Part shown: one piece after another, positions 5,208 through 48,465 of the stretch | Position numbering within the stretch: position 1 is the first letter of the stretch | Layout of the letters: the number at the start of each line of letters is the position of its first letter | Assembly: GCA_041651115.1 (NCBI GenBank) | Contig: JBAZJY010000003.1 | Location: 3,188-67,187, forward strand | Length of the DNA stretch: 64,000 bases | Direction of reading: 5' to 3' | Origin: Candidatus Omnitrophota bacterium | Lineage (GTDB): Bacteria; Omnitrophota; Gorgyraeia; Gygaellales; Profunditerraquicolaceae | Translations under genes and position numbers: made by a program | The notes under the pieces: generated by a model | The model's database searches: none | What the model saw: only the letters and a program-made list of their open reading frames with translations | Told to the model about the DNA's origin: nothing

Positions 5208-6686
5208 TCAGGTCTTTACCACTGATAATGTTTTTTGCAATCTCTTAAGATCATTATCATTTGCAAGCACCAATAAGACGTCGCCCCCTTCGATTACCGT
5301 AGAGCCGTTCGGGACAATAAAGGTATCTTCGCGTGAAATAATAACGACAAGGGCCTTAGGAGGAATATTGATTGCGGCGATAGATTTTCCGACAACATGC
5401 GAATTATACGGCACGATCATGTCGGTAAGCGAAGCATCAATGGCCTCCGAATATTCAAACTCAATAGGGTATTTCTTCTTTGGGTCAAACGGAGCATTAA
5501 CTTTAAGTATTTTTGATATACCCGGTATAGATGTTCCCTGAAGCAGCACAGAGGTTAAAACAACGAAAAACACTATATTAAATATCGCATGCGCCTGCGC
5601 TATCCCGGCCAGAAGCGGGAATGTCGCTAAAATAATCGGCACAGCGCCACGTAATCCTACCCAGGATATCATTGCCTTTTCCGCAAAATTGAATTTAAAC
5701 GGCAACAGGCATAAGAATACGCTGACCGGCCGCGCAAAAAGAATAAGTATAGCGGCTACCAGCAAACCGCTTACAATGATCGGCACTATCCGGGAAGGGA
5801 AAACAAGCAGGCCCAGCGTCAAAAACATCGCAATCTGCATTAACCAGGCAATCCCTTCATAAAAACGGACGATTGACCGCTTATTGACAAAATCACTCCT
5901 ACTCATCATTAACCCCAGCAGATAAACCGCGAGAAATCCGTTTCCCTTGATTAAAGTAGTAAGGGCGTAGGTAAAAACTACTAAGGCAATGGTCAAAACC
6001 GGGTATAATCCCTCATATTCAAGCTTACTCTTATTAATAAGGAAAATGCTTACCCGGGACATAAAATATCCCATCAACAGCCCGACACCCATATTAAGAA
6101 CAAAAAACGGGATCAAATTCAACACGGGAGAGCCAGGATTAATCAAAAGCCCGATACAGCCGATGGTAAGAAAAACAGCCATCGGGTCATTGCTGCCTGA
6201 TTCAAGCTCCAGGAGAGGCTTTAAGTTACCTTTAAGGGATATTTTCCGTGATCTGAGAACGCTGAAAACCGCCGCGGCATCAGTTGAGGATACAATTGAA
6301 CCAAGCAATAGCCCTTCAAGCAGTGAAAATTTAAGGATCAAAACCGCGGAAAAGCCGACAATTACAGCCGTAATAAGCACTCCGGCAGTTGATAAAATTA
6401 AACCCGGGGCGAGCAGCGGCTTAACGGATTTCCATGGCGTGTCCAAACCTCCGGAATAAATAATAAAGATCAGCGCGACGATACCGATTGATTTTGCGAT
6501 ACCATAATCGTTAAAATATATCCTGCCGATCCCCTCAGAACCTGCCAGCATTCCGATAACAAGAAACAGCAATAAGGCAGGCAGAGCAAACCTATCGGAT
6601 ATTTTACTTGCCAATACGCTGATAAGCGTTAAGACTGCAGCCCACAATATAATTGTTTCCATCGTCATGGTAATCGTTATTCCCAC
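5208..6686 (-). CDS. K+/H+ antiporter, CPA1 family with C-terminal TrkA_C/RCK_C domain (NhaP2/CvrA-like)
   Basis: About 12 TM helices followed by a soluble C-terminal domain (VVGKSIAAINIPPKALVVIISREDTFIVPNGSTVIEGGDVLLVLANDNDL) typical of TrkA_C. Confidence 0.7.
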   Translation of the reverse strand: MGITITMTMETIILWAAVLTLISVLASKISDRFALPALLLFLVIGMLAGSEGIGRIYFNDYGIAKSIGIVALIFIIYSGGLDTPWKSVKPLLAPGLILSTAGVLITAVIVGFSAVLILKFSLLEGLLLGSIVSSTDAAAVFSVLRSRKISLKGNLKPLLELESGSNDPMAVFLTIGCIGLLINPGSPVLNLIPFFVLNMGVGLLMGYFMSRVSIFLINKSKLEYEGLYPVLTIALVVFTYALTTLIKGNGFLAVYLLGLMMSRSDFVNKRSIVRFYEGIAWLMQIAMFLTLGLLVFPSRIVPIIVSGLLVAAILILFARPVSVFLCLLPFKFNFAEKAMISWVGLRGAVPIILATFPLLAGIAQAHAIFNIVFFVVLTSVLLQGTSIPGISKILKVNAPFDPKKKYPIEFEYSEAIDASLTDMIVPYNSHVVGKSIAAINIPPKALVVIISREDTFIVPNGSTVIEGGDVLLVLANDNDLKRLQKTLSVVKT

Positions 6687-7858
6687 ATCTCAAATATGTT
6701 TTTGAAAATTCCCCGTACAGCGCTCCGGGGGCTAGACTTAAATGCGTTCTTAAAACTATTGATCCTTGCCCTTATGAACTTTAATCGTAAAATATAGTCC
6801 GCTCTAACATTTAATACATAATGCCCGCATTTATCACAATCTGTCTTTTCGATCACGGTGCCTGTTTTATGTATGTTTTTAGATATCCTGCGAAACTCTC
6901 TGTACATATCCGAGAACCATATTTTACTGAACTTAGATAAACAGTTATCCCCCATCACCAAACCGGAGCCGCAACACGGAAATACCAAACCTGATGAATC
7001 TATCCTGGTAAATAGCCACCCTATGTAACATGGAGTGCTGATTGTTGTTTTCCCCCCGGCAAGGTCTTTATCTTCCTGATTGCCACAATTAAAATAATGC
7101 GATTTTAAAAGTTCGGGAATTGAATTATTGATAAAGTATTTTGCGGCTAATTTTTCCGCCTCCAAAAGGTCTTTCTGAAGATGCGAATGTTGTTCGCTAT
7201 TTAATCTCAAAGATGAGAGCTCTGAATTTAACCATATCGGGCGGATATTGATATTTTTAACTCCGGTATCAACGGCAAAGCGCACCATATTAGTCGTTTC
7301 CGAATAATTAATATTGTTTATCACGGAATGCAGCGTAATCTTGGCTTTCTTTGATTTAGAAAGGATGGAGATACGCCGTTTCAGCCGGTAAAAATCTTCA
7401 GCGGAATGCCGCGGGTGGACCTTGCACCAAACATCGGGTGTCCCCGCGTGCAAGCTTATCCAGAATCGTACGTTTGGCATAGCTAGTTCATCAATCATCC
7501 CTTCCGTAAGGTGTATGCCGCTTGTTACTAAAATACACTCCATCCCGAGAGAAACAACGAATTTTATCATCTTCCCGATTTCCGGGTTTAGGAGCGGCTC
7601 CCCCTTCCCTACTATCTGTATTTTTTTCGTGCCAAGCATGTGCAATTCCCATGCCAATTTCTTAAAAGTTTCAAAAGAGAGGAATGCCTGGCCATTAGCT
7701 TGGTTGTTCCGGCTTGGGAGCAAGGGAGAAAAATTATAGCATAGCATACAGCCAACGTCACATAGCTCCGAAACCTCAATCTGCGCGCTTCTGGGGCCGC
7801 AGAATGCTGAATTGTTGCTTACCATCCCCATAAATGTTTTTAATTTTGTAAACCGCAT
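6677..7858 (-). CDS. radical SAM / SPASM-domain protein (peptide- or protein-modifying maturase-like)
   Basis: CDVGCMLC (CxxxCxxC) near N-terminus. C-terminal Cys-rich region CYIGW...PCCGSG...CDKCGHY consistent with SPASM auxiliary clusters. No adjacent small precursor ORF seen. Confidence 0.6.
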   Translation of the reverse strand: MRFTKLKTFMGMVSNNSAFCGPRSAQIEVSELCDVGCMLCYNFSPLLPSRNNQANGQAFLSFETFKKLAWELHMLGTKKIQIVGKGEPLLNPEIGKMIKFVVSLGMECILVTSGIHLTEGMIDELAMPNVRFWISLHAGTPDVWCKVHPRHSAEDFYRLKRRISILSKSKKAKITLHSVINNINYSETTNMVRFAVDTGVKNINIRPIWLNSELSSLRLNSEQHSHLQKDLLEAEKLAAKYFINNSIPELLKSHYFNCGNQEDKDLAGGKTTISTPCYIGWLFTRIDSSGLVFPCCGSGLVMGDNCLSKFSKIWFSDMYREFRRISKNIHKTGTVIEKTDCDKCGHYVLNVRADYILRLKFIRARINSFKNAFKSSPRSAVRGIFKNIFEMWE

Positions 7859-7865
7859 AATTTTC

Positions 7866-9758
7866 TTATATTTTTCCCTGTTTCCCGGTTGAACGCGAAG
7901 CAGCTTCTATTTGACGATTAATCTCGGAGACTCTGCCCGCATAATCGCCATATTCCGTTAAAAGCTCTTTATATATCTTTAACGCCTCCGTCGGCTCGCC
8001 TTCCTGACGATAAATATCAGCCAGGCTCATGCTGGAATGATATACCCGCCCGCGGTCAGCAGGGTCTTTTTCAAGGCTGATGAGAAATGCCTCCCTTGCT
8101 TCTTTTAATTTACCGATTTCCCGGTAAGCCTGGCCGATATTTATATAGATGTCAGCGGTTTTTTGCGGATCATCATTATATTCTACCAGGAGCTTCCCGT
8201 ATATTTTCAATGCTTCCATTTGCTTATTTTCCTGGCGATCAATTCCGGCCATGGCCAGCTTAGGCCAATAGAGTTTCTCGCGGGTCCCAGGGCCTTTGGC
8301 AATACTCAAGCGAAACGCATCCCTTGCTTCTTTTAATTTACCCATGTCTATATGGACATAACCGATGCTCAAATAAGTATCTGCGATTTTATCCGATAAA
8401 CCGCTATATTCGCTTAAAAATCCTTCATAGACCTGTAAGGCTTCCGCCAATTTACCTTCGCGGCGATAGATATCGGCCAGGCACATCCTTACCCAATATA
8501 CCCGCTCACGATCATTAACGTCATTATCAATACTAAGAAGGAATGCGTCCCTTGCCTCTTTTAACCTATCCATTTCCAGGTAAATCTGCCCGATTGCGGC
8601 ATAAGCGTCTGCCAGCTTGCGCGGAGCATCTTTATATTCGGTCAATATCCGGCCGTAAGTTTTTAATGCCTCCTGCCAGTTTCCCTGCCGTAGGCGGATA
8701 TCAGCCAATGTCATTTTTATCCTATATGCCCATTCGGGATCGCCGGGTTGCATCTCTAAACTTAGCTGGAATTCCTTAGCTGATTTTTCTAATTCGCCTC
8801 CGGCTAAATATACCTGCGCAAGCTCCTCATGTAACCAGGCAAGCTGGTCTTTAGGCAAATGCTTATTTTCCAGGAGCCCGGACAATACGTCCGCTGCTGC
8901 CTTAAAATCTTTATCCAGGCGATAGATCGCGGCAATCTTAACATAAGGAAAGAGGTCGTTTATGCCGTCACGGATATAGCGGGCAGCCAATAACCGATAG
9001 ATCTCTATTGCTTTCGCGGAATTGCCGCGCATATACTCTCTTTCCGCAAGCTGCGGCAAAACGTAAGTGCTCCTGTTCTTCGGGTCGGAAAAATGCACAA
9101 TACCTGACCAAACAGGCAATGCGGCAAGAATAAATAATACCGCCTGAAGAATCCTGTTTGCCTTGAGTACAGCCGCGGCTTTTTTTAATAATACTTTTCC
9201 CCTCGTATAAATCAAACCGTTGTTTTCCTCTATGTACCTCCTCTGCGCATCCGTCAGCCCTGAAGCATAAAAAAACAGCGCGCCCTGCACCTTGGCTTTG
9301 CTAAAGTTAACGCCTGCAACATTCGCGCCTGTCAGGTCAGCCCCGGAAAAATCCGCTCCGTCAACAACGGCATTTGCCAGGTCCGCATCGCGTAAGTCTG
9401 CGCCTGAAAAATCCGCTTCCCATGCGTTTATGCCGGCAAGAGAAGCTGCGCGCAGCATGCATCCGGCAAAACTTGTCTGCAGCGCGCGGCAGCCGGATAA
9501 TCTTGCTTCTTCCAGGATCACGCCGTACAGCCTTGCCCTACTCAAGTCCGCTTCCCGCAGGTCTGCGCCGCGCATAGTTACTCCCGATAGTATCGCCGAC
9601 TCAAAATTAGAGCCGGTAAGAGTAGCGGCGTCCATATCTACCCTTAACAAGCTTACCCTGCTAAAAACCATGCCCGCGAGCTTTGCCTTACGCAAATCAA
9701 CGCCAACCATCCGGGCTGCGCCACTGTGTTTATTTAGAGGATCAATGTTTATTCTCAT
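7866..9758 (-). CDS. pentapeptide-repeat / transmembrane / TPR-repeat protein
   Basis: N-terminal tandem A(D/N)LxxA pentapeptide repeats (ADLREADLSRARL...ADFSGADLRDADLANAVVDGADFSGADLTGANVAGVNFSKA). One TM helix (ILQAVLFILAALPVWSGIV). About 10 TPR repeats (repeated EAL.IY..LL.EY, DKIADTYLSIG, KLKEARDAF). Confidence 0.6.
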   Translation of the reverse strand: MRINIDPLNKHSGAARMVGVDLRKAKLAGMVFSRVSLLRVDMDAATLTGSNFESAILSGVTMRGADLREADLSRARLYGVILEEARLSGCRALQTSFAGCMLRAASLAGINAWEADFSGADLRDADLANAVVDGADFSGADLTGANVAGVNFSKAKVQGALFFYASGLTDAQRRYIEENNGLIYTRGKVLLKKAAAVLKANRILQAVLFILAALPVWSGIVHFSDPKNRSTYVLPQLAEREYMRGNSAKAIEIYRLLAARYIRDGINDLFPYVKIAAIYRLDKDFKAAADVLSGLLENKHLPKDQLAWLHEELAQVYLAGGELEKSAKEFQLSLEMQPGDPEWAYRIKMTLADIRLRQGNWQEALKTYGRILTEYKDAPRKLADAYAAIGQIYLEMDRLKEARDAFLLSIDNDVNDRERVYWVRMCLADIYRREGKLAEALQVYEGFLSEYSGLSDKIADTYLSIGYVHIDMGKLKEARDAFRLSIAKGPGTREKLYWPKLAMAGIDRQENKQMEALKIYGKLLVEYNDDPQKTADIYINIGQAYREIGKLKEAREAFLISLEKDPADRGRVYHSSMSLADIYRQEGEPTEALKIYKELLTEYGDYAGRVSEINRQIEAASRSTGKQGKI

Positions 9759-11442
9759 TTTTATAAACCAGAATTTCTTTATCGTCCGATCTTATTTTCT
9801 GCACTAATCTGATTTTAGGAAAGATGCCGATCAAAACATCTATATGGTTTTTCTTCAACCGATAGGCAGCCGGCATTTCTTTGTCCGGATAAGATCCATC
9901 AATCACCGCAAAATATTCCGCGCAATGAAAGTCAGCCCTATTTGCCTCGTTTAGATCACGCAAAAATTCGTCATACTCCAGCCATTTATTGCCGCGGCCT
10001 ACGGAGCGCACAAACAGGTAAAAATCGCAGTTGGAAATATTTATATTATCACGATAACGGATCAAATCTACCACTTTAGATTTATTATTATATGCCTGGA
10101 GCAGCATGCTTAAATAAGCGCCGCACTCCGGGGGGTTATCATCGGTAATGTAATAGACTACTCCGGCCCTGTATCTTTTCCCCCGGTTGGCCTGATTAAG
10201 GTATTCTGCGGCAGAATACCAGGGGCGCCACTGTTTCAGCGGAAAAGGCATACATTCAACGAACGTATATCTATCTATTGCCCGCGCCAAACCCGATCGT
10301 TCAAAAAACGGCGCTGCCGCAGGAAGCAAGACCGGAGTGAAACGCAGGAACGTAAATATGCTGAAAAATAAAAAAACAACGGCCAATGCCGATCTTAAGG
10401 CCTTCGGCCGCACGTAAGACAGCCCCAATCCGCTGATAATGCCGAAAAAAGGCACATAAGGAACGGCGTATTGGAAGAATCTGGCTGTCATAATGGTCAG
10501 GATGCAAAAAGGCACGATAAACCATACAAGCAGAAGCAATTTATGCCATTTATTTTTATGCTCCCGGAAAAAATAAAAAGCGCCGGTGACGAACAAAATA
10601 ACATTTATAAGGCCAAGATGGTAATTCTTTATCGCGGTCAAATGGTATGCCAGAAAAGAGAGTTGATACGGATGGCTGACTCTCACCCCGTCCTGATTGC
10701 TCAAGAACAGGCGCGCTATACCGTCTCGATCCATACACGAAGGATGGATCAGATAATTCTTATAGTATACCAGCAAAACCAGCAGAAAGCTTAACAGCAA
10801 CGCGATAATCAGGTTGTTGCGGCCGGCTTTGTTGGCTGTTACCGGGATAAACAGATAAAAGAATACCGCGCACAACGGCCCGACAATAAAAAAGATTATG
10901 CTTTGTTTTATCAGCAGGCCTGCCGCAAGCAAAATACCGAACCAAAGCGAATATACAAGGCTGTTAAATCCGCTTGTCCTGATTAAAAAATAGAATATCC
11001 ATACGGACATCGCCGCCTGCGCCAGCTCCAGATCAAAAACCCGCGAGGCTGCATAGATAACCGGATAGAACCCAAGGATCACCGCGCTCAATAAGCCGGC
11101 TGTCCGGTCTTTAATATATTCGCCGATCTTATAGGCGCCGCATAGTAACAGGGCAAGGAACAGGCTTGAAGTCAGAAAAAAATATTTATACCCAAAGACG
11201 ATCCGGATCAAGGCGGAAATTAAATAATAAAGCGGCGGATAGCTGGGCTCAGCGGTTAAGGCGTCCAGAAAACTGTCCTGATGGTTGCCGGTCAGGACCT
11301 TGTACATGCGCGCCCCCTGGCTGGCATGGTAAGCAGTATCCTTCCACGCAAATACGTCGTAATACTGCATAAATATATAATTGGAAAAAACAAAAAAACC
11401 GATAATGGAAAACAATAATACCAGTGCGAGTTTTCTGCTCAT
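9742..11442 (-). CDS. GT-C fold membrane glycosyltransferase, ArnT/PMT-like (COG1807; GT39/GT83)
   Basis: Multi-pass membrane protein. N-terminal periplasmic loop with HASQGARM...EPSYPPLYYLISAL, like the ArnT/PMT DE...YPPL signature region. C-terminal soluble domain. Confidence 0.55.
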   Translation of the reverse strand: MSRKLALVLLFSIIGFFVFSNYIFMQYYDVFAWKDTAYHASQGARMYKVLTGNHQDSFLDALTAEPSYPPLYYLISALIRIVFGYKYFFLTSSLFLALLLCGAYKIGEYIKDRTAGLLSAVILGFYPVIYAASRVFDLELAQAAMSVWIFYFLIRTSGFNSLVYSLWFGILLAAGLLIKQSIIFFIVGPLCAVFFYLFIPVTANKAGRNNLIIALLLSFLLVLLVYYKNYLIHPSCMDRDGIARLFLSNQDGVRVSHPYQLSFLAYHLTAIKNYHLGLINVILFVTGAFYFFREHKNKWHKLLLLVWFIVPFCILTIMTARFFQYAVPYVPFFGIISGLGLSYVRPKALRSALAVVFLFFSIFTFLRFTPVLLPAAAPFFERSGLARAIDRYTFVECMPFPLKQWRPWYSAAEYLNQANRGKRYRAGVVYYITDDNPPECGAYLSMLLQAYNNKSKVVDLIRYRDNINISNCDFYLFVRSVGRGNKWLEYDEFLRDLNEANRADFHCAEYFAVIDGSYPDKEMPAAYRLKKNHIDVLIGIFPKIRLVQKIRSDDKEILVYKNENKH

Positions 11443-11490
11443 TCCTGCCCCTTAAGGTAAGCGTAACTGCCCATACAGCGCCCGAGCCGG

Positions 11491-13140
11491 TCAATAAACC
11501 CGGAAAACAATATTCTCTTCGTCTTCATATATAAGCCGGTAATTTTCTTTATAGAGTCTGATGCGGCCGCGCGCCTCTAAAGGAATAAGGTATTTATGTA
11601 TCACGATATATTTGACTTTATTGACGGACAACTGCAGCTTCTGCAGGCTTAAGTCGTTTAATTCCAGGCGGCTGATAAGCGGTTTGCCTACCCGGCGCGA
11701 AATATAGCCCTGGACTATCGGGAGAGCGTGAAAAGTCTGATACATCATATATCTTGCCGCATACATATAATTATAAGCGGGTAAATCCAAAATGCCGAAT
11801 TTTTCAGTATCCTTGCCGATCGTTTTATAGGCAGGCGGACAATATACCGGCGTTATTGCCGCGCATACCGAGTAATAATCGCAGAATAATAACAGGCTAA
11901 CCAGAAAAAATGCCAGACCCCTCCTTATCAACTTAAAGCCATAAGCCCGATACAGGTATTTTATGGCAAAAGAAACTATGACCGCCCAAAACAGATAAAC
12001 GTAAACTATGGCCCGTGACGGTGTATGCATTACCGATAACAGGGGGATGTGTTTCATCAGCGCGTAAGGAAGCGGTATAGAGCTTTGCCAGCCAAATATA
12101 TGCACGGAAGTACCCATGGACAAGGCTAAAAACGGCAGAGCGGCAAGAAAATATTTTGCGGCTTGCTTTTTTATTCCTTTAAACGCCAGAATAACAAGAA
12201 CAATGCTTATAATGCCCAGATAACCGGTCTGTTCCCACGGATTGCCGGTAAACCTGGTGTTTATGTATTGAAATATACTACTGTCGGCAAGCGCATGGTA
12301 CGGATGCGGCACTATCAAGGCCAAAAGGTCAATTACAAATATATCCGGATTACGCAAGCCGGCTGTCTCAGGGTGGTTCAGGCCTACTTTCGCCATCTTA
12401 AACAGCCACGGCCCAAGAATTAATACGGCAGGCAAAAGAGTTAAAACGGATTTTTTTAAGGCATCGGGAAGGAAAAATCTTCTTCTCCTAAAAACCAGGT
12501 ACACATAACCAAGGCAGACAAAGATAACGCCCAAAACAAAATAATAAAGACTGCTGACGCTGTTTAATGCGAAAAACAGGCCGGCAAGAAATAAATCTTT
12601 TTTGGAATTATAACGCAAGGCCTTTATGAAATACAGGACAAAAAACGGTATGAATTGGATCGTTGCCAGCTCTATGTGGTGCAGGGAATGCGCAAAATGC
12701 GAAGGGTTAAAAGCAAAAATAAAGCCCCCGACCGCGGCCGCAAACGGATCCTTTGTCAAATACCTGACTAAAAGGAAAGCGCCGATACCGGAAAGCACGA
12801 ACGTTGACAATATCAGCAGATTATAGGCAAATACCGGGCTTATGAATTGCTTTAATATTACGGCGATAAAAAGGTTATAAAAAGAAAATGCCTGGAATAA
12901 CAATGAACTGCCTTCCGGATAAAATATATAATTTGAAAAGGCCATGCTCCCGGAATGCCCTACAAACACCTTATTCGCCCACCATATATCCCAGAAATGC
13001 GACAGATTGTCTTCCGCAGGCCCGATCAGCGAAAGTGCGATCTCCTTAAGGCAGGGAGAAAAAAAGACCGCAGTAAAAAAACAATATGCCAGGATAGCGG
13101 CTAAAAAAACGTATCTACTGCTGACGGATTTTTTGGGCAT
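11491..13140 (-). CDS. polytopic membrane protein, probable GT-C type glycosyltransferase (YfhO/ArnT-like)
   Basis: More than 10 TM segments plus a ~120 aa C-terminal soluble domain. Sits between a GT-C and a GT2 gene. No sharp motif recognised. Confidence 0.35.
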   Translation of the reverse strand: MPKKSVSSRYVFLAAILAYCFFTAVFFSPCLKEIALSLIGPAEDNLSHFWDIWWANKVFVGHSGSMAFSNYIFYPEGSSLLFQAFSFYNLFIAVILKQFISPVFAYNLLILSTFVLSGIGAFLLVRYLTKDPFAAAVGGFIFAFNPSHFAHSLHHIELATIQFIPFFVLYFIKALRYNSKKDLFLAGLFFALNSVSSLYYFVLGVIFVCLGYVYLVFRRRRFFLPDALKKSVLTLLPAVLILGPWLFKMAKVGLNHPETAGLRNPDIFVIDLLALIVPHPYHALADSSIFQYINTRFTGNPWEQTGYLGIISIVLVILAFKGIKKQAAKYFLAALPFLALSMGTSVHIFGWQSSIPLPYALMKHIPLLSVMHTPSRAIVYVYLFWAVIVSFAIKYLYRAYGFKLIRRGLAFFLVSLLLFCDYYSVCAAITPVYCPPAYKTIGKDTEKFGILDLPAYNYMYAARYMMYQTFHALPIVQGYISRRVGKPLISRLELNDLSLQKLQLSVNKVKYIVIHKYLIPLEARGRIRLYKENYRLIYEDEENIVFRVY

Positions 13141-14416
13141 CTATTTTTTCCCTGTTAAAAACTCTGATAAAATCAAGAATATAGCGGGCAGCAAGAATCT
13201 CCCGTTTAAAATATAACTTACTTTCATATCTCTCGCTCCACCATATCGGGATCTCTTTTATCTTGTAGCCATGCCTGATCGCCCTTAATAATAATTCCGT
13301 ATCCCAAAATACCCCTCTTCTTAACGACCGGTCGTAACCCATTTCTTCAACCAGCGCCAGGATAACTTCTTTTTTGAAAGCCTTAAAGCCGCACATATGG
13401 TCGGCTATTCCGGTATGAAACATCAGCCGGATAAAAAAATTATATGCGCGGCTGATCGACAGCCTGAAAAGGCTCCTTTTCCTTTTTGCACCGGCAAGAT
13501 ACCTGCTTCCGGTAACAATATCATATCCGCAAACCACCTGGTCAATCAGGTCTTTCAGGAATCTTAGGCTCCTTACGGCATCTACATCAACAAACGCGAT
13601 AATATCGCCACCGGCTTTTTTAAACGACTGCGCCAGATTTTCCCTGCGCGTCGGCCCGATATCGTAATTAAGCAGGCTGACCTTGCGGTTAGAGCGCTCA
13701 ATAGCGCGGCTGATCAGTTCGGTCTGGTCCCTTGAAGCGTCATTTACGATAAATATCTCGTAATCAACGGGGATCTTCCTTATTATATATTCCAACGTAT
13801 GGATCGATCGCTTAAGCGTGCTTTCTTCGTTGAATATGGGGACAAACACGGATACGTGGTGTTTTTCGCCCGACCTGTAATCAACTTTATGTTTTACCGC
13901 TAAAATGGTCGTGCCGAAATTAAGGCGCAGGCCGGACATCCGGAAAAATAATTTATCCAGCCAGCCTGGCAATGGCCGGTGTTTCAAGCCGAAAATTTTC
14001 CGTAAGGATAAGACCGGGACCAGGAACCAAAATAGATGCGTTATTTCAAAGCCGGAAAAATCATTGGCGCTGTACCTGCGGCGGTGGCCGAGAAGCCTGT
14101 CATATTTTCCGTAAAGCCACTTATAGGCAGGGACCGTAATCACGATCTTTTTCCTTGCGACCCTGAGCAGCTCGTTTATGGCCTGCTTATGCGGCCCGAT
14201 GAACTCAAGCGCATCGGAACAAATAACGGTATCAAATGAATCATCGCCAAAGGGCAGCTTTGAAAATTCTCCGCCGATATTTACCGCGTTATCTATAATG
14301 CATCCGTATCCGACACTTAGACAGGAACCCTCAACCATTGATTCCAGGAGTTTGCGCTTATACGTGAAATAAAAATTGGGGCGGCCTTTCAGCCATTCGG
14401 CGTTAAGCTTGTCCAA
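13115..14416 (-). CDS. family 2 glycosyltransferase (polyprenyl-phosphate sugar synthase / Dpm1-ArnC-like) with degenerate N-terminal methyltransferase-like segment
   Basis: VSVFVPIFNEESTLKRSI...YEIFIVNDASRDQT...GSRYLAG is a GT2 Rossmann with DxD. N-terminal KLPFGDDSFDTVICSDALEFI resembles Methyltransf_11 motifs II/III but the GxGxG motif I is missing. Confidence 0.6.
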   Translation of the reverse strand: MDKLNAEWLKGRPNFYFTYKRKLLESMVEGSCLSVGYGCIIDNAVNIGGEFSKLPFGDDSFDTVICSDALEFIGPHKQAINELLRVARKKIVITVPAYKWLYGKYDRLLGHRRRYSANDFSGFEITHLFWFLVPVLSLRKIFGLKHRPLPGWLDKLFFRMSGLRLNFGTTILAVKHKVDYRSGEKHHVSVFVPIFNEESTLKRSIHTLEYIIRKIPVDYEIFIVNDASRDQTELISRAIERSNRKVSLLNYDIGPTRRENLAQSFKKAGGDIIAFVDVDAVRSLRFLKDLIDQVVCGYDIVTGSRYLAGAKRKRSLFRLSISRAYNFFIRLMFHTGIADHMCGFKAFKKEVILALVEEMGYDRSLRRGVFWDTELLLRAIRHGYKIKEIPIWWSERYESKLYFKREILAARYILDFIRVFNREKIDAQKIRQQ

Positions 14417-19352: not shown

Positions 19353-22300
19353 TTACTTCAAAAACGGCAGCAAGCCTTCATGGCCGAGGATGTTTATCCG
19401 GCCGTCAATAAACTCATAGGCGTCTTCTTCAAGTATGAACTGATCAAAAGCAGAATAATCAGCGCTTACCAGAGGATGATAGAAATAAACCACCGGCATA
19501 AGGGTAAAAGTATTTATCCGGTATAAAGCCATATCTGTCTCGCTAAGCACCGGCTTAAGCAGCGCGTCAGCAGTTGCCAATTGAGAGATAACCGCAGGTA
19601 ATGATCCGGTAATATTAAAATTACCCGATGTTATAGCACTTAAACCTGCCGCAGAAGCAGTCAGCGCATAGCCGGTACCTGGCAGGTTAATGAATAAGTC
19701 GCCAAAAGTAACTACTCCGCCTGAAGCAGTGTGGGTGAGCGTTCCGGAAAGAGCTGCTCCGGAAGGATTAATGCCAAGTGCAATACTCACGGAAGTCGCA
19801 TTATCCGTGCTGGCAGTATTGCCGAATTGATCTCTAAGCGTAATGGTTATTGCCGGCGCGATCAACGTATTAAAATCAACGCTGGACGGCTGCTGGCTAA
19901 ATACCATTATAGCCGCAGCAGCAGGGTTCACGGTTACTGCCAAAGGAACCGATGTAGTAACCGCACCCTGCGTTGCGGAGATCGCGGCGCTTTCCGCGTT
20001 ATATAATACTGCGCTGCCTCCGCTGGTTGAAACGCCGTTAGTAAAAGTAACCACGGTATTTGCGCCAAAACTTATTGCTGCGCCGTTCTTATCCGTGACC
20101 GTAGGAACGAAGCTGCCAATAGAATTTGCTCCGCTAAAGACCAGGGTTTTGTCTCCGGAGTAAGACAAGGCTGTGCCGCCGACCCCGTCAATTGCCGTGA
20201 TCGTCAGGAGATTGGCTGCCCCGGCATTCTGTGAGCCGGAGCCGGAGACTACGAAATGGTCCACCAGGTTCCAGTTAGTATTATTGCCGCTGTCTTTTGA
20301 GCTTGTTGCCGTTATCACAGAAGCGTTGATATTATTTGAATCTTTTACATCTACAAAAGAAACACTGCGGCTTCCTTGCGGATCGATCAGCCATTGCGAG
20401 CCGCTTACTGAACTGCGCAGGATGATCAGGTTACCCGATGTGCCGGTAAGTGTCAACGCTCCGTTAATAGTCAGCGTTGTGCCTGCGGTAAAGGTAACCT
20501 GATTACCCGCGGATACGGTAAAGCTTCCGGTAACAAGCTTATCGCTTAACGAGGCAAACGTCGCCTTGTTGGTATTGGTATCATTAATGCTCAAATTAAA
20601 GTAGTCCGTTGCCCCGAAATCTTTGATCGTAATGGTTTCCGCGATATTCCTGCCTACATATTCCCAGGTTCCGGAGTCAGTATCATTCACTGTCCAGGAT
20701 ACGGTTTCTATTCCCTGCAGCCGCAAGGTACCGTTATTCACGAAAGAAGTGGTAGTGGTAATATTAAATCCGTTAAGATAAAGCACCCCCGAGCTGATCG
20801 TCAGGGTGCCGTTTATATCCAGGTTATTATTGATCAGCGTAACTACCGCTCCGCCGGATTTATTAATCACTAAATCCTGGAAATCGTCGCCTGCAGCAAC
20901 GCCGCCTGAATCAAGCGTAGAATTAATTGAACCGTCAAACGTAACTATGCTATCCTGGGAATTAAACGTTGCGGAATTTGACCAATTACCGGCAACGTTA
21001 ATACTAAAATCGGACGCACTTGTATTAAGTGTGCCGCCTGAGATCGTCAAATTGCCGTCTACATCAAGATTACCGGCAAGGGTTGAGGTACCACCGGTGA
21101 ATTCAATATTATCAAATGCCATAGTGGTTGAGGTCCCCTGTCCGTCTATAGTATTCGCGCCGTTAAAGACCACAAGCGAATTATTGGTAGTAGCGTCCAC
21201 TGTTCCCGCGATATAAGTCCAGGCTCCTGCGCCTGCCCCATTTATGCGGATCGTACCTGCCAGCGTTAAAGTGCCTGCGCTCTTATTAATCGTCAAATCA
21301 GGCAGCTCGCCGGCGCTGACCGTAGCATTGCCGGTAAAAAGCTGGTTGGCAGATCCCGTGATCTGAAGCAGCGCAGAGCCGCCATCAGTCAAACTTCCCT
21401 GGATCAGATCTCCCTGCACATTAATAGTTCCGGTATTGATCGTTCCATCGGTATAGGTAAAAGTACCGGTTATAGTAAGCGTAGTGCCGCTTGCGATTAC
21501 CCTGGTCCCGGCATTATTGAAAGTCACATTATTCAGGGTATGCGAACCCGTAATAGTCATACCGCCGTCAAATACCAGCGTGCTTGAGCCGGTATTCAGC
21601 GTCCCTGCCGTATATGTCCAGGCATTCGCGCCCTGCCCATTGGTACGGATAGTGCCGGCGAGGAAAAGCGTACCGCTGGCCTTGTTGATCGTAACATCGG
21701 GTAATTCGCCTGCCGTTGTAGTGGCGCTGCCGGTAAAAGTCTGATCAGAAGCGCCGTCAATAATCAGCGTAGCTGTGCCTCCGTCAAACGTGGATAATTG
21801 AACAATATTCCCGCGCGCGGAAACTGTGCCGGAATTAATACCGCCGTCGGTCAACGTAAGAGTTCCCATAATAATAATCGTATCTGCTGCAGCTACTGTC
21901 TTGTTTGCGGTAGAATTAAAATTTACATTGTGGAATGTTTCGGTGGTAAGCACATTGATCGTGGCGCCTGCGCCGCTAAAAGTAACGCTGCTGGTACCCT
22001 CGTTAAACGCGCCTGCGCCGGAAATAGTAAAATTATTGGCAATGTCAAGATTAGCTGAACCCGCGTTAAATATGCCTGTGCCTGAAGCAGCAAAGTTATT
22101 CGCTATGTTTATATTGCCGGTACCTGCATTGAAAGTGCCGCCGGAAACGCTAAAATTACGGCTTACTGTCAAAGTTTGACCGCCTAAATTAACCGTACCT
22201 CCTGCCTGGCTGAAATCCCTGACTGAAAGCGAACGCTCAAAAGTAATAGTGCCTGTATAACCCGAACCGATCAACAGGTCGCGGATCGTGCCGGCAAAGG

Positions 22301-24035
22301 CTGCGTCTACAATAGAATCTTTGGTTGAGGTAGCGTCAAAGGTCGCGTCAGTAGTAGAGATTGGCAGGGTATTGCCTGACCAGTTATCCGCGTCAGACCA
22401 GTTATTGGTAGTACCGCCGCCGTCCCAGGTAGGGTCAATTTCAAAATTAACGTTGTTTCCCGCGTCAACGCCGATCGGGATAATAACGGTATTTAACGCG
22501 TAGGCATCACGGATATTCACTCTTTCAAGGAGATATCCTGCAGCCTGAAGGTCCAGATACCAATATTCGCCTGCCTGGCTTGAACGCAGTTTAATGAAAA
22601 ATTCTTCAGGGCCGATATCAACAGCGCCGATTATACTCAAGCTTCCTTTAAAAGTATATGTCTTTCCCGCTTCAAAATATATTTCTTTATCGGGGATCGC
22701 TAAATTGAGATTATAAAAAGTAATATTTCCGTAAAGATATACGGGTTCATTTCCTAAAAAGCTTACTTCTGCTGCCTCTAATGTAAGGCTTGAGCCTTTA
22801 TCATAGAGGATCGCGCCGAATCCATCCGGAGGACCGCGCAGCAACACACTTGTGCCGATGCCTAAGCTTTCCAATATATCTATGTTGCCTAATGACCGGA
22901 TAAAATGAATATGCTCCGCGTCAATTGCGATAGGAAAACCTGCTGCGCCAAGGCTCCTGGCAGTGATATTTACTTCACTTGCCCGGATAACCACAGCTAA
23001 AGTTGCCACGTCAGCTAAAGGATCGCTGTTTAAAGTCGTCTTTATGTTTTCAGCTTCAATAACTACTTCTCCGCCAACAGCTTCTATTAAGCCATCCTGG
23101 ATTACGTCTGCTGCCTTTATATAAACCGCTCCGGCCCCTGCTTCTAACGCCCCGGCATTAATCACCGGAGCGCCTTCGGCTACCAGCTCAATTATCCCAT
23201 TATTGCTTACAAGGTTAGTTGCCTGGATTATACCTGAATTATTGATCGCGTGATCAAAGATATGATTCAAAGCTTTGACGGCTAAAATTACTTTGCCTCC
23301 CGGATTAAGGATTGTCCCGCTATTGCGAACGGCCGAGCTTAATTTTTCGCCGTCAAAGCCAAATATTTCTTCTTTTACAGCTTCATCGATCACTACGGAA
23401 ATCATGCCGGCAGTATCAAGATTAAGGGTGATCTTCTCTCCGGCTGCCAGGACTACCGAGCCTAATGTCGTTTCAATGGTGCCGGCATTAGCTACCGCAG
23501 AGCCCAATAAAACCGCCTGTCCGCCTTCCCTTATTTTTATGTAGCCGTTATTTATTACCGGCTTGCCTACTTTATCTACCCATTTAGTAAAAATATAATT
23601 TGAAGAAAGGAAATCGCTGTTTTGTATATTTAATGTGGAAGCGATAATGCCTGCGGCATCTATCCTTGCCAATGGGCCGATATTTATGCCGTTGGGATTG
23701 ATCAGATAAATTATGCCGTTTGCGCTAAGCGTGCCGAATATGCCGCTTATTTGGTCGCCCAAAACGCGGTTCAAGGCAGCAGAGGTTGCGGACGGCTGAT
23801 AAAAATAAACCGATTCGCCGGCTGCAATGCTAAAACTGTTATAATCAATGATTAATTTATCGGAAGGAGTGGTGATCTTAAGGATGTTCGGTTCGGAGCG
23901 GTCAAAACTGGCGCTACCCTCAATTATGCTTTCTCCTTCAGGAAGGGCAAAAGCAGAATTCAGGCTGATAAGCCAAAGGCTTACCAGTGCCAGTATCCAT
24001 ACGCTTATCTTTTTAACTCTATGCACCCTCAACAT
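19353..24035 (-). CDS. two-partner secretion exoprotein TpsA (filamentous-haemagglutinin family), 1560 aa, beta-helical with internal tandem repeats
   Basis: Signal peptide. N-terminal TPS domain (IIDYNSFSIAAGESVYFYQPSATSAALNRVLGDQISGIFGTLSANGIIYLINPNGINIG) with the NPNGI motif. Long Gly/Thr/Asn-rich beta-helix region with two ~133-aa tandem repeats. C-terminal 50 aa shared with the 24980..26581 protein. Confidence 0.8.
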   Translation of the reverse strand: MLRVHRVKKISVWILALVSLWLISLNSAFALPEGESIIEGSASFDRSEPNILKITTPSDKLIIDYNSFSIAAGESVYFYQPSATSAALNRVLGDQISGIFGTLSANGIIYLINPNGINIGPLARIDAAGIIASTLNIQNSDFLSSNYIFTKWVDKVGKPVINNGYIKIREGGQAVLLGSAVANAGTIETTLGSVVLAAGEKITLNLDTAGMISVVIDEAVKEEIFGFDGEKLSSAVRNSGTILNPGGKVILAVKALNHIFDHAINNSGIIQATNLVSNNGIIELVAEGAPVINAGALEAGAGAVYIKAADVIQDGLIEAVGGEVVIEAENIKTTLNSDPLADVATLAVVIRASEVNITARSLGAAGFPIAIDAEHIHFIRSLGNIDILESLGIGTSVLLRGPPDGFGAILYDKGSSLTLEAAEVSFLGNEPVYLYGNITFYNLNLAIPDKEIYFEAGKTYTFKGSLSIIGAVDIGPEEFFIKLRSSQAGEYWYLDLQAAGYLLERVNIRDAYALNTVIIPIGVDAGNNVNFEIDPTWDGGGTTNNWSDADNWSGNTLPISTTDATFDATSTKDSIVDAAFAGTIRDLLIGSGYTGTITFERSLSVRDFSQAGGTVNLGGQTLTVSRNFSVSGGTFNAGTGNINIANNFAASGTGIFNAGSANLDIANNFTISGAGAFNEGTSSVTFSGAGATINVLTTETFHNVNFNSTANKTVAAADTIIIMGTLTLTDGGINSGTVSARGNIVQLSTFDGGTATLIIDGASDQTFTGSATTTAGELPDVTINKASGTLFLAGTIRTNGQGANAWTYTAGTLNTGSSTLVFDGGMTITGSHTLNNVTFNNAGTRVIASGTTLTITGTFTYTDGTINTGTINVQGDLIQGSLTDGGSALLQITGSANQLFTGNATVSAGELPDLTINKSAGTLTLAGTIRINGAGAGAWTYIAGTVDATTNNSLVVFNGANTIDGQGTSTTMAFDNIEFTGGTSTLAGNLDVDGNLTISGGTLNTSASDFSINVAGNWSNSATFNSQDSIVTFDGSINSTLDSGGVAAGDDFQDLVINKSGGAVVTLINNNLDINGTLTISSGVLYLNGFNITTTTSFVNNGTLRLQGIETVSWTVNDTDSGTWEYVGRNIAETITIKDFGATDYFNLSINDTNTNKATFASLSDKLVTGSFTVSAGNQVTFTAGTTLTINGALTLTGTSGNLIILRSSVSGSQWLIDPQGSRSVSFVDVKDSNNINASVITATSSKDSGNNTNWNLVDHFVVSGSGSQNAGAANLLTITAIDGVGGTALSYSGDKTLVFSGANSIGSFVPTVTDKNGAAISFGANTVVTFTNGVSTSGGSAVLYNAESAAISATQGAVTTSVPLAVTVNPAAAAIMVFSQQPSSVDFNTLIAPAITITLRDQFGNTASTDNATSVSIALGINPSGAALSGTLTHTASGGVVTFGDLFINLPGTGYALTASAAGLSAITSGNFNITGSLPAVISQLATADALLKPVLSETDMALYRINTFTLMPVVYFYHPLVSADYSAFDQFILEEDAYEFIDGRINILGHEGLLPFLK

Positions 24036-24103
24036 CTTAAGCTCCTGTCTGATTGTATCCCCTTTTTTCTACACTATTTAGATGCTTCAGGAGCTAAAAT
24101 GTT

Positions 24104-24886
24104 TCAGGATTTTTTGCGGATAAAATCCGCTATTTTCACCTCCAATTCAATCGGCAAGTCACGGCATTCCAAGAACTTAGCGACTTTGATCGCTTTAGAG
24201 TATTTGCTCAGGAATAATTTGCATGGCCGGCAGTCTTTAATATGCCTATCAAAGGCTTTTTTGCGGGTCTTGCCTAAAGAACCGCGGCTATAGTTATATA
24301 CGAACCCTTCCCAGATGCTGCAGCGGGGGTTTTCCTCTTCATTTTTCTCCAGTTTATCCTTAAAATAATCCTTTGTTTCCGCGGCAAGCATCATCTCTGC
24401 CCTGCGCAGCCTTGTCCTGAATGATGCTTCCTTAAGCTTTAAAACCGCAGCCGCGGCTTCACCCGGCATACGTTCAACATAGTGCAGCACCAAAGGCATA
24501 CGGTATTCAATCGGCAGCTGCTTGATCGCGTTATCAACCCGCTGCCGGAATTCGACATCAAGCGCCTGTTCATCAGGCATTTTTGACCAGTTAACGAACA
24601 GCCCGGAAAGCTCCTTCTTTGTCCCGTCTTTAAAACCGTCAATCAGCTTGAAGCGGCTTGAACGCTTTCGCAGATACATCAACGCTTCATTATAGGCGAT
24701 CTTATATATCCAGGTAGAAAGGTATTCGCGGTTCTTCAGCTCTTTAATGTTATCAATGATCTTCACGAATACGGACTGCACCACGTCTTCAGCATCAGTC
24801 TGATTCCTGGTAATGCTCAAGGCAAGGCCGTAGATCTTATTTTTATAGTTCTTGAAGATCTCTTCTATTTTGATTCGTGGCTTCAT
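24104..24886 (-). CDS. ECF-type sigma-70 factor fused to a C-terminal zf-HC2 anti-sigma domain
   Basis: Region 2 (DAEDVVQSVFVKIIDNIKELKNREYLSTWIYKIAYNEALMYLRKR). Region 4 (LPIEYRMPLVLHYVERMPGEAAAAVLKLKEASFRTRL). Then FDRHIKDCRPCKLF, the HxxxCxxC anti-sigma zinc finger. No TM segment. Confidence 0.7.
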   Translation of the reverse strand: MKPRIKIEEIFKNYKNKIYGLALSITRNQTDAEDVVQSVFVKIIDNIKELKNREYLSTWIYKIAYNEALMYLRKRSSRFKLIDGFKDGTKKELSGLFVNWSKMPDEQALDVEFRQRVDNAIKQLPIEYRMPLVLHYVERMPGEAAAAVLKLKEASFRTRLRRAEMMLAAETKDYFKDKLEKNEEENPRCSIWEGFVYNYSRGSLGKTRKKAFDRHIKDCRPCKLFLSKYSKAIKVAKFLECRDLPIELEVKIADFIRKKS

Positions 24887-24929
24887 AATACCTAATTATA
24901 TACCGCGTTAAAGAAAATGCTACAAAAAA

Positions 24930-24975
24930 AAGAGGGGACGTTTCTAAGGAAACGTCCCCTCTTTTTTAAGAGCTT
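24930..24975 (-). terminator. rho-independent terminator after the 533-aa tpsA gene
   Basis: Perfect hairpin AGAGGGGACGTTTC-(loop)-GAAACGTCCCCTCT flanked by an A-tract on one side and a T-tract on the other. On the minus strand it is followed by TTTTTTTT. Confidence 0.65.
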
Positions 24976-24979
24976 AGTT

Positions 24980-26581: not shown

Positions 26582-26776
26582 AAGAAAGTTTACCCAATGG
26601 AAACGGCTTTGTCAAGGCGATATTTTAATGAGGCCATGGCTTATTGAGCGAATAAAAACGAGCGAAAATAAGCCATTGGGCCGAATTGAGATCCTTAAGT
26701 TTTGATTTAGCGAAATCCCGCAGCTGCGAGTAGATTTCTACAAAATCTACGAGCTGCTTGCTGTCGGGATCTATCC

Positions 26777-28480: not shown

Positions 28481-29238
28481 CGCTGTCCCTCCTTTTTGTC
28501 TAAACTTGTAATTTCGCTTTTTATGCAAACTTCAAGAATGTCACCTTTAATTTCTGTTGTTATTTCATCGGCTGCCAGCTTAACGCCTTTTTTCTCATAA
28601 GCCTGCGTAAGCGCGCCGGCTATCTGGTTGATATCGTCTTCAGTCAGCCAGTGCCCTTCAAGCGGCGGAATGATCTCCCCGATTTCTTTTTCATTGAGCA
28701 ATTCGGCGCCTTTTATGCTGATTTTTTTAACGAATACTTTGTCCGGGCTATTGATCTTTTGCCTTAGCGCCGCCTCTTCTTCAAGCAACTCCTCAAACCG
28801 CGCTATTTCGCCGGCGGTTTTTTGCGCAAAGCAAAGAGGTATACCGCCATCGATAATATTGGCAATCCTTTTTGCAAATAAAGCATAACCTACGGCAAGC
28901 GCGTTCAGGCAGGCGATCAAAGAAACTGCCGCGGCAATGTCTTTAACCAGCTTTATCAGGATATGATACTTGCGGGTAGTCATATCAATCATCATTTCAA
29001 TTGCCGTATTGAAGATCTCCGCCATAAATACGAGAGTGATGGTAATGCATAGCGCGATCAATTCAAGGCCGTTTAATCCAAAATAGACGCCCAAAAGGAA
29101 TGCCGCGACCCCGAGCATGAACATGATGCGCATATTGCGGTGATAAAGGAACAGATAGCCGACGCCTTGCGCTGCCAGCCGCATGCTTTGAAAAAATCCC
29201 GTGAAACGGAAGATATGCTTAAGTACCCGCTTTTTCAT
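28477..29238 (-). CDS. prokaryotic diacylglycerol/undecaprenol kinase (DgkA) fused to a C-terminal POTRA-like periplasmic domain
   Basis: N-terminal 125 aa has three TM helices and the DgkA signature EIFNTAIEMMID plus KDIAAAVSLIACLNALAVGY. C-terminal 125 aa (VFVKKISIKGAELLNEKEIGEII...DDINQIAGALTQAYEKKGVKLA...GDILEVCI) is collinear with the POTRA_2 region of the adjacent TpsB. Start TAATG overlaps the acsE stop. Stop overlaps the tpsB start. Confidence 0.6.
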   Translation of the reverse strand: MKKRVLKHIFRFTGFFQSMRLAAQGVGYLFLYHRNMRIMFMLGVAAFLLGVYFGLNGLELIALCITITLVFMAEIFNTAIEMMIDMTTRKYHILIKLVKDIAAAVSLIACLNALAVGYALFAKRIANIIDGGIPLCFAQKTAGEIARFEELLEEEAALRQKINSPDKVFVKKISIKGAELLNEKEIGEIIPPLEGHWLTEDDINQIAGALTQAYEKKGVKLAADEITTEIKGDILEVCIKSEITSLDKKEGQR

Positions 29239-30026: not shown

Positions 30027-30040
30027 ATAGCTCCTTAGAT

Positions 30041-30117
30041 TAGGGACGGTTCTCAACTCAAAGCTAAAGTGTCCCCCCTACGGGGACACTTTACGATTGG
30101 CTTGAGAACCGTCCCTA
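30041..30117. repeat. ~76-bp nested palindromic intergenic element, copy 1 (REP/MITE-like)
   Basis: TAGGGACGGTTCTCA...GTGTCCCC-CCTAC-GGGGACAC...TGAGAACCGTCCCTA. 15-bp perfect terminal inverted repeats plus an inner 8-bp hairpin. A second copy with identical termini is at 61018-61093. Confidence 0.6.
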
Positions 30118-45177: not shown

Positions 45178-45227
45178 ACAAAGCTGAAAAAATATGTAGA
45201 ATATCATCGTTAATATAACCCACTGCG

Positions 45228-48464: not shown

Positions 48465-48465
48465 G

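Follow-up and report, generated by a model that had tools for sequence, protein, structure and literature searches.

Five adjacent genes in the genome of an Omnitrophota bacterium raise the question of whether they jointly encode a glycosylation pathway that runs over a lipid carrier and, if so, what that pathway glycosylates. They lie in a 64,000-nucleotide stretch (the window) of contig JBAZJY010000003.1 in the Candidatus Omnitrophota assembly GCA_041651115.1; members of this phylum are uncultured and very small, and may depend on a host. In the order in which they would be transcribed, the genes encode a protein with a methyltransferase (MT)-like and a family 2 glycosyltransferase (GT2) domain, two polytopic membrane proteins, a membrane protein that combines pentapeptide and TPR repeats (hereafter Penta/TPR), and a radical S-adenosylmethionine (SAM) enzyme with a SPASM domain (Table 1). 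The original prediction, drawn from the sequence alone, took them for a self-contained pathway of lipid-carrier-dependent glycosylation whose target might be a protein or peptide rather than lipopolysaccharide. We consider it on balance probable, if by no means certain, that the island, which sits among unrelated housekeeping genes, serves envelope glycosylation of the type that pairs a polyprenyl-phosphate sugar synthase with a GT-C transferase, a known system type built here from uncharacterised families. As for the acceptor, we somewhat favour a surface glycan or glycolipid over a protein.

The signature of lipid-carrier-dependent glycosylation is present, in that a GT2 resembling polyprenyl-phosphate sugar synthases stands beside two enzymes of GT-C fold. 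The GT2 domain occupies approximately residues 186-400 of the 433-aa protein (nt 13861-13217), carries a D277-V-D motif and scores 69.7 bits against Pfam Glycos_transf_2. Its closest solved homologues are DPMS (7e-12), ArnC (9e-11) and GtrB (3e-10), with an E-value gap of about three orders of magnitude between these and other GT2 enzymes, and its best NCBIfam matches are PgfS, ArnC, a Dol-P-hexose transferase and AglJ. The earlier description of the enzyme as Dpm1/ArnC-like holds. DPMS, ArnC, GtrB and their like each load polyprenyl phosphate with one sugar. By subfamily resemblance we place the protein, which is cytoplasmic or peripheral, provisionally in the polyprenyl-phosphate monosaccharide synthase class, with no specific sugar assigned. 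Overlooked in the original prediction was its N-terminal portion (residues 1-180, nt 14416-13877), a degenerate methyltransferase-like domain to which class-I methyltransferase models align by their C-terminal half only, and Methyltransf_11 only by profile positions 49-89. When aligned with an intact MT-GT2 fusion (locus L053) and a stand-alone methyltransferase (L078), the domain proves to be about 45 residues shorter after motif I than that of the intact fusion, and the deleted stretch includes the usual position of the acidic SAM-ribose ligand. In the window protein this domain is probably structural and not catalytic.

The 549-aa membrane protein matched no Pfam or NCBIfam model in our own scans, and the Pfam hmmscan was empty even at E <=10. 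The exact protein and most of its homologues nevertheless carry a precomputed PF19830.5 (DUF6311) label in the protein database; we recovered 178 homologues, most of them labelled PF19830/DUF6311, among the 8,000 top word-sharing candidates that were scored. The family ranges over Omnitrophota, Ignavibacteria, Zixibacteria, alphaproteobacteria and some archaea. No paper naming DUF6311 came up in a full-text literature search. An AlphaFold model of the protein (pLDDT 89.9, pTM 0.90) retrieved only GT-C enzymes as its top Foldseek matches in the PDB: STT3, AglB and PglB of the oligosaccharyltransferases (OST) at E 1e-9 to 1e-5, TM-scores of about 0.5 and 10-14% identity, then DPY19 (6e-8), ArnT (6e-6, only the 20th match), AftA, Pmt4 and ALG6. 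When the DUF6311 alignment was searched as a profile against PDB sequences, nothing matched; only the fold search was productive. Comparison of the family with a PMT_2-like set by hhalign gave a probability of 78% (E 2e-5), with the acidic loop motifs of the two paired. This motif, G40-P-A-E-D44-N in the window protein, lies in the first extracytoplasmic loop, right after the first transmembrane (TM) helix, and in an alignment of 33 sequences G40 and D44 are invariant within the consensus GPPEDN (PAEDN here). A periplasmic alpha/beta domain of about 120 aa forms the C terminus. As modelled, the protein has a clear GT-C fold, closest to OST and DPY19 and then to ArnT. We considered an oligosaccharyltransferase identity and rejected it: the WWD string occurs in neither GT-C of the island, and the likeness is at the level of fold only.

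The second GT-C, of 566 aa, has some 10 hydrophobic segments within residues 1-375 and ends in a periplasmic domain of about 190 aa. It has no NCBIfam match, the ArnT model included, and no solved homologue by sequence. The two membrane proteins had been described as ArnT-like GT-Cs; both are of GT-C type, and the ArnT-specific part of the description does not stand, with neither matching the ArnT model and the 549-aa protein nearer to OST and DPY19. The proposed domain annotation was likewise recovered in most respects: PMT_2 (in the 566-aa protein), Glycos_transf_2, Radical_SAM with SPASM, and Pentapeptide were all found, and the 549-aa protein was left without a Pfam match.

The 630-aa Penta/TPR protein matches Pentapeptide (PF00805) with 115 bits over five stretches, as well as TPR_12, TPR_2 and many further TPR models. 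A pentapeptide-repeat beta-helix spans approximately residues 1-175 (nt 9758-9234) and is followed by the protein's sole hydrophobic segment at about residues 203-221 (TM helix at about 199-222, nt 9164-9093), to the C-terminal side of which lies a TPR solenoid of about 400 aa (nt 9071-7866). Because a stretch rich in lysine and arginine precedes the TM helix, the positive-inside rule would place the pentapeptide part in the cytoplasm and the TPR part in the periplasm. By analogy with the luminal TPRs of TMTC enzymes (PMC7801869), a role as putative scaffold or acceptor-binding adaptor is plausible. The architecture is rare, and the protein is no general partner of the DUF6311 family. The only full-length orthologue in a collection of 5.8 billion proteins (P0139, 46% identity) is flanked by DegT-type sugar aminotransferases and a B12-binding radical SAM protein (locus L090); a second, a 540-aa open reading frame (ORF) in locus L089, was found separately. 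In all three lineages the context is sugar-related, and in two of them (the window and L089) the gene adjoins a GT-C.

What is conserved among these genes can be read from the relatives' neighbourhoods, for which we examined the immediate neighbours in 70 of 79 species-representative DUF6311 loci. Two contigs of one organism (L006 and L089) preserve the gene order of the window, with the GT2 (81% identity), the DUF6311 protein (72%), the PMT_2-type GT-C (52%) and then Penta/TPR (44%). By domain-wise phmmer, the gene immediately upstream of DUF6311 is an MT+GT2 fusion in at least seven of the 70 loci (L025, L034, L038, L042, L050, L053 and L056); the metagenome-assembled genomes (MAGs) concerned bear the labels Planctomycetia, Chrysiogenales and Omnitrophota. 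In L078 (in the order GT2, MT, DUF6311) and in L082 DUF6311 is flanked by MT and GT2 genes that are not fused, and L079 has an MT upstream only; L079 and L082 are archaeal, DPANN-type MAGs. A GT2 is found within <=3 genes of DUF6311 in 22 of the 70 loci. In L001/L025 the order is a 682-aa membrane protein with C-terminal TPRs, a degenerate MT-GT2 (71%), DUF6311 (56%) and a methyltransferase. The N terminus of the L001 682-aa protein is weakly GT-like by NCBIfam; hhalign of the PMT_2-like set against this protein returned a probability of 2%. Across the 70 genomes, the genes immediately upstream of DUF6311 include GT1/GT4 (10), GT2 (10), methyltransferases (9) and PMT_2 (9), those downstream include PMT_2 (5) and GT87 (3), and other loci bear Wzx-like, Wzt, deacetylase, acetyltransferase and sulfotransferase genes. 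A tblastn search with all five proteins against the 79 loci did not uncover another complete cluster, and the PMT_2-type GT-C, used as query in a metagenome scan, brought up one locus only, from the same organism as L006.

Judged from these neighbourhoods, the MT-GT2 and the DUF6311 GT-C are the conserved core of the island, to which particular lineages have added the second GT-C and Penta/TPR; the DUF6311 family as a whole sits, by the same evidence, in polysaccharide-type loci. The conserved pairing of MT-GT2 with DUF6311 suggests that the transferred sugar may be methylated. Two outcomes had been named as fatal to the original prediction, namely a lack of synteny in any relative and GT-C genes that turned out to encode unrelated membrane proteins, and neither is what we found. 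The block GT2, GT-C, GT-C, Penta/TPR is kept in one relative and the pair GT2 plus DUF6311 is widespread; only the radical SAM gene falls outside the syntenic block.

The resemblance of the GT2 to ArnC also calls up an ArnC/ArnT-like modification of lipid A or the lipopolysaccharide core, altering surface charge and resistance to cationic peptides. The ArnC matches themselves (1e-17 in NCBIfam, 9e-11 among solved structures), the presence of ArnT among the structural matches of the DUF6311 model (6e-6) and the apparently diderm nature of Omnitrophota, with Omp85-type (TpsB) proteins encoded in the window, would all suit such a role. We nevertheless regard it as very unlikely: the cluster holds no homologue of ArnA, ArnB, ArnD, ArnE or ArnF, the window no small four-TM flippase candidate, and the ArnT model is matched by neither GT-C, while two GT-Cs, a TPR protein and a radical SAM enzyme are superfluous to the Arn pathway and the DUF6311 family extends to archaea (L079, L082), which have no lipid A. 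With no partner genes and no model match, an Arn-type lipid A pathway was rejected.

The radical SAM enzyme (393 aa) is, with Penta/TPR, one of the two members of the island on which the prediction of a peptide or protein target had leaned. It exceeds the Pfam cut-offs for both Radical_SAM (50.8 bits) and SPASM (25.7 bits), with C33xxxC37xxC40 at nt 7762-7739 and SPASM-region cysteines at 277, 295, 296, 306, 341 and 344; the first cysteine of the family's CxCxxC is absent, which makes for an atypical SPASM region, and a helical tail is predicted at the C terminus. The deposited gene call begins nine codons later than the ORF used here. Searched against the PDB, the family profile matched BtrN (2e-21), PqqE (6e-15), BlsE (1e-14) and DesII (5e-11). 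By fold, SkfB, SuiB, BlsE, DesII and anSME are indistinguishable as matches, and an argument that structure alone favours a sugar enzyme was withdrawn; the fold search does not tell peptide from sugar substrates. The sugar-modifying radical SAM enzymes BtrN, BlsE and DesII, of twitch or SPASM type, give the window protein its best profile matches and high fold matches, and it resembles them further in lacking a RiPP (ribosomally synthesised and post-translationally modified peptide) recognition element (RRE) and in its glycan context; they differ in that identity is only 13-18%, that peptide maturases are similar by fold, and that the SPASM cysteines of the window protein are atypical.

Seventeen homologues came from a word-indexed search. 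An orthologue of 62-67% identity (L007) follows immediately on a membrane protein of 528 aa that matches PMT_2 weakly (E 9e-4), with GT2, methyltransferase, B12-binding radical SAM and epimerase genes around it; a homologue of 35% identity (L008) stands among the Bac_transf, GT1, GT2 and several radical SAM genes of a polysaccharide cluster; and one of 31% (L009) adjoins an epimerase and a PMT_2 protein. An HMMER search of 1.84 billion representatives yielded 146 matches at E <=1e-30, the best of which, beyond the orthologue, are proteins of 900-2000 aa (P0258, P0259, P0261-P0264 and P0267) with two to four tandem radical SAM/SPASM modules, about 30% identical to the window enzyme and often with a B12-binding radical SAM module as well (Pfam). 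Such giant fusions look unusual in their own right. P0267 carries in addition an N-terminal Pfam GT2 domain and is, by its domain content, a Rosetta-stone link between this enzyme and glycosyltransferases. Only 32 residues precede the CxxxCxxC motif, which leaves no room for an N-terminal RRE, none of the five ORFs is PqqD-like, and no precursor-peptide ORF fits the junctions of the gene (a 7-nt gap on one side, a 10-nt overlap on the other). Given the glycan contexts of the homologues, the fusions to GT2 and B12-binding radical SAM modules and the lack of both an RRE and a precursor ORF, the enzyme appears more likely to be a sugar-tailoring enzyme than a peptide maturase, and the step from SPASM domain to peptide or protein target is one that we do not follow. 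Within the island we regard it as accessory and specific to the lineage.

Two of the loci searched call for comment. In L007 (ENA contig_43869) the transketolase gene is in three pieces and the B12-binding radical SAM gene in two, the radical SAM orthologue is truncated, with a frameshift, and the membrane protein downstream of it is split; sequencing errors are likely, and gene lengths there are unreliable. That split membrane protein looked PIG-V/GT-C-like by eye, was unsupported by Pfam and NCBIfam, and was not counted. In another Omnitrophota MAG (L022, 6146-7330, + strand) a different radical SAM protein, of 394 aa, lies directly downstream of a DUF6311 GT-C; it shares only the core with the window enzyme (28% over 127 aa) and has no SPASM match. 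Radical_SAM proteins occur in two of 67 downstream neighbours of DUF6311 genes.

Taken together, these genes can be arranged into the following scheme. The GT2 domain would act at the cytoplasmic face and, as its homology suggests, load polyprenyl phosphate with a single sugar taken from a nucleotide sugar; the lipid-linked sugar would then be flipped by a transporter encoded elsewhere, and in the periplasm the DUF6311 and PMT_2-type GT-Cs would use it as donor for transfer to an acceptor. The periplasmic solenoid of Penta/TPR may organise the GT-Cs or hold that acceptor, and the radical SAM enzyme would be a variable tailoring add-on whose substrate, to judge by context and domain fusions, is most likely the sugar, the lipid-linked donor or the glycan rather than a peptide. 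The closest parallels are the three-component systems of extracytoplasmic glycosylation (GtrA/GtrB/Gtr*, CsbB/GtcA/YfhO and Citrobacter ORF15/14/12; PMC11127046, PMC8035078), in which a GT2 related to GtrB, DPMS and ArnC likewise accompanies GT-C-fold enzymes. These systems can include donor-tailoring enzymes (PMC11127046), and ones that tailor the lipid-linked donor are known there, such as DprE1/E2 and the ORF13 epimerase. Their GT-C with an acidic motif in an extracytoplasmic loop also has its equivalent here, in the invariant D44 of the AlphaFold/Foldseek-supported DUF6311 enzyme, the second enzyme being of PMT_2 type. The island differs from them in having no flippase gene among its five ORFs, a GT2 without TM helices and with a degenerate MT domain, and two GT-Cs of different families, one of them DUF6311; Penta/TPR and the radical SAM/SPASM enzyme have no counterpart there.

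A further, rather doubtful extension of this scheme is that the radical SAM enzyme comes from a clade dedicated to glycans and performs radical chemistry on the polyprenyl-phosphate-linked sugar or nascent glycan, which the two GT-Cs, organised by the Penta/TPR adaptor, then install on the cell surface. Epimerisation, oxidation, deoxygenation or C-C/C-methyl chemistry would be examples of what it might do. We know of no characterised precedent for a pathway with a radical-SAM-tailored lipid-linked donor. If the enzyme does act on a lipid-linked sugar, the known repertoire of three-component glycosylation would be extended; otherwise the locus is an ordinary, variable surface-glycan island. The island in any case provides a concrete parts list for one Omnitrophota envelope modification, the DUF6311 family gains a fold and a likely role, a recurrent pair of MT-GT2 and DUF6311 GT-C is identified, and a clade of radical SAM/SPASM enzymes is linked to glycan rather than peptide chemistry. 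The reported hypervariable cargo of Omnitrophota genomes includes surface-glycan genes (bioRxiv 10.64898/2026.06.07.730766), and the variable composition of the island fits this.

Several observations weigh against envelope glycosylation by this route, in whole or in part. No flippase candidate was found among the five ORFs (where GtrA, SMR and MATE types are all missing) or in the 64-kb window, where ORFs of 80-200 aa with >=3 hydrophobic segments were screened by hydropathy and a large MATE-type transporter was not screened for. The only ORFs to pass that screen look, by eye, MgtC-like and PlsY-like. With no sugar-nucleotide genes either, the pathway cannot be called self-contained, as it had been. 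All NCBIfam scores of the GT2 fall far under the equivalog cut-offs, and hydropathy predicts no TM helix in it, unlike in GtrB and ArnC; for these reasons we accept the activity class and leave the sugar unassigned. The PMT_2 (PF13231) match of the 566-aa protein is marginal (30.4 bits against a cut-off of 26.1), and its orthologue at the same position in L006/L089 scores under the cut-off. The four-gene synteny is known from that single relative, in which Penta/TPR is followed by about 450 nt and then an alpha/beta-hydrolase lipoprotein gene in place of the radical SAM gene; a conserved co-location of the latter with its partners therefore fails, its gene being absent beside the four-gene block. 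A homologue of the radical SAM enzyme with 25% identity (L091) has a housekeeping, non-glycan context, the RiPP maturases SkfB and SuiB come marginally first in its fold search, and most of the enzymes structurally close to the DUF6311 model glycosylate proteins.

These last two points bear directly on protein or peptide glycosylation, in which the GT-Cs would O- or N-glycosylate periplasmic or surface proteins recruited by the TPRs and the radical SAM enzyme would mature the same target or Penta/TPR itself. The best matches of the DUF6311 model, OST (STT3, AglB, PglB) and DPY19, all modify proteins, and yet TM-scores of about 0.5 do not discriminate between types of acceptor, the WWD motif is missing from both GT-Cs, and the neighbourhoods of DUF6311 genes resemble polysaccharide loci. 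TPRs on the active-site side of a GT-C are a hallmark of the TMTC protein O-mannosyltransferases (PMC7801869), and the island shares with TMTC1-4, TMEM260 and bacterial PMT_2-TPR fusions (PMC7801869, PMC10214176) a PMT-clan GT-C with a large TPR portion predicted to be extracytoplasmic. The L001 protein beside GT2 and DUF6311, with its TPRs at the C terminus and its weakly GT-like N terminus, is a further likeness; here, however, the TPR is on a separate polypeptide with a cytoplasmic pentapeptide-repeat domain. The top NCBIfam match of the GT2, PgfS, comes from a protein-glycosylating system with two GT-Cs, the Pgf operon of Streptococcus mutans (PgfS GT2, PgfE epimerase, PgfM1/PgfM2 GT-C; PMC12041528), which resembles the island in joining a GT2, a tailoring enzyme and two GT-Cs. 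The match (65 bits against a cut-off of 500) makes the window protein no equivalog; the Pgf GT-Cs are of YfhO family, the Pgf tailoring enzyme is an NAD epimerase as opposed to a radical SAM enzyme, and the adhesin substrates are Ser/Thr-rich and encoded in the operon, where none is seen in the island. Penta/TPR itself has no Ser/Thr-rich tail. For the radical SAM enzyme, the leading place of SkfB and SuiB in the fold search has to be set against its absence from the closest syntenic relative, the lack of an RRE or precursor ORF, and relatives that stand beside, or are fused to, sugar enzymes. We therefore hold a protein or peptide target to be unlikely, and keep to a surface glycan or glycolipid as the favoured acceptor.

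The arrangement of the genes in the window does little to settle which of them belong together. The five ORFs lie at the predicted coordinates, all on the minus strand, and the junctions 7858/7866, 9742/9758, 11442/11491 and 13115/13140 were verified. Between 524 and 43103, however, nearly every ORF of >=150 aa is on the minus strand, and the stop of the radical SAM gene overlaps the start of a Na+/H+ exchanger gene by 10 nt (6677/6686), with a P-type ATPase gene 19 nt beyond; on the other flank of the five genes are those for an MscS-like channel, TilS and a flavodoxin/ferredoxin protein. A promoter scan gave 25 promoter-like sites against a shuffle mean of 24.3, a terminator scan 23 terminator-like sites against 16.0 in shuffled sequence (sd 3.8); both are near what shuffling predicts, and no site of either kind marks a cluster boundary. 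With so extreme a strand bias, and the same overlaps reaching unrelated neighbours, gene orientation is uninformative on operons, and co-orientation with tight spacing is no evidence of an operon or of cluster limits in this genome. Since the spacing is not distinctive, the grouping of the five genes rests on function and on synteny elsewhere. The cumulative GC skew falls monotonically over the whole 64 kb.

It could accordingly be supposed that only a module of two to four genes (GT2, DUF6311, perhaps the second GT-C and Penta/TPR) is functional, the radical SAM enzyme being unrelated, for instance a maturase of a cofactor or metalloenzyme. The genome-wide tight spacing and co-orientation, which tie this gene to the Na+/H+ exchanger as well, its absence in L089 and the distant homologue among housekeeping genes are all consistent with this, as is its best NCBIfam match, a tungsten-enzyme maturase. 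That match, however, reaches 77 bits against a cut-off of 380, the 62-67% orthologue in L007 again comes right after a GT-C-like membrane protein among sugar genes, homologues of 31-35% identity lie in glycan clusters, and P0267 is fused to a GT2 domain, which leaves a separate function for the enzyme quite unlikely.

Table 1. The five genes of the proposed glycosylation island and other features of the window (positions in nt of the 64,000-nt window).
Feature	Position	Strand	Basis or remark
MT-like + GT2 protein, 433 aa	13115..14416	-	putative polyprenyl-phosphate monosaccharide synthase
DUF6311 GT-C-fold glycosyltransferase, 549 aa, polytopic	11491..13140	-	AlphaFold/Foldseek, hhalign, database PF19830 label
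PMT_2-type GT-C glycosyltransferase, 566 aa, polytopic	9742..11442	-	Pfam PMT_2
Penta/TPR protein, 630 aa, single-pass membrane	7866..9758	-	Pfam Pentapeptide + TPR models
Radical SAM/SPASM enzyme, 393 aa	6677..7858	-	Pfam Radical_SAM + SPASM
Two-partner secretion (TPS) locus	19353-28528	-	1560-aa and 533-aa proteins with TPS secretion domains
Extracytoplasmic function (ECF)-type sigma factor gene	24104-24886		between the exoprotein genes
TpsB/ShlB-type transporter	26777-28528		POTRA domains
Kinase/POTRA_2 ORF, 253 aa	28477-29238	-	diacylglycerol/undecaprenol kinase domain (21-121), POTRA_2 fragment (170-218)
Wood-Ljungdahl-type genes	29238-35065	-	CdhD-like carbon monoxide dehydrogenase/acetyl-CoA synthase subunits, pterin-binding methyltransferase, RACo corrinoid activase, CooC/ParA-like ATPase
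Third PMT_2-type GT-C	43474-45177	+	33.4 bits; weak ArnT match, 24 bits
1078-aa protein	45228-48464	+	no Pfam match; NCBIfam GH149 beta-1,3-glucan phosphorylase, E 1e-35, 123 bits vs cut-off 1150
925-aa protein	48466-51243	-	single N-terminal TPR, the only Pfam match

Elsewhere in the window, the third PMT_2-type GT-C gene is followed by that for the 1078-aa protein, on which the gene for the 925-aa protein converges; the region 43474-51243 may be a second GT-C-centred glycan locus. We also considered a link between the island and the two-partner-secretion exoproteins encoded 5 kb upstream of it, and found nothing in support. The 253-aa ORF next to that locus shares about 50 nt with the beginning of the TpsB gene; it may represent an over-extended start of TpsB, a remnant or a genuine fusion. 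The Wood-Ljungdahl-type genes point to a metabolism of anaerobic, acetogenic type in this Omnitrophota bacterium.

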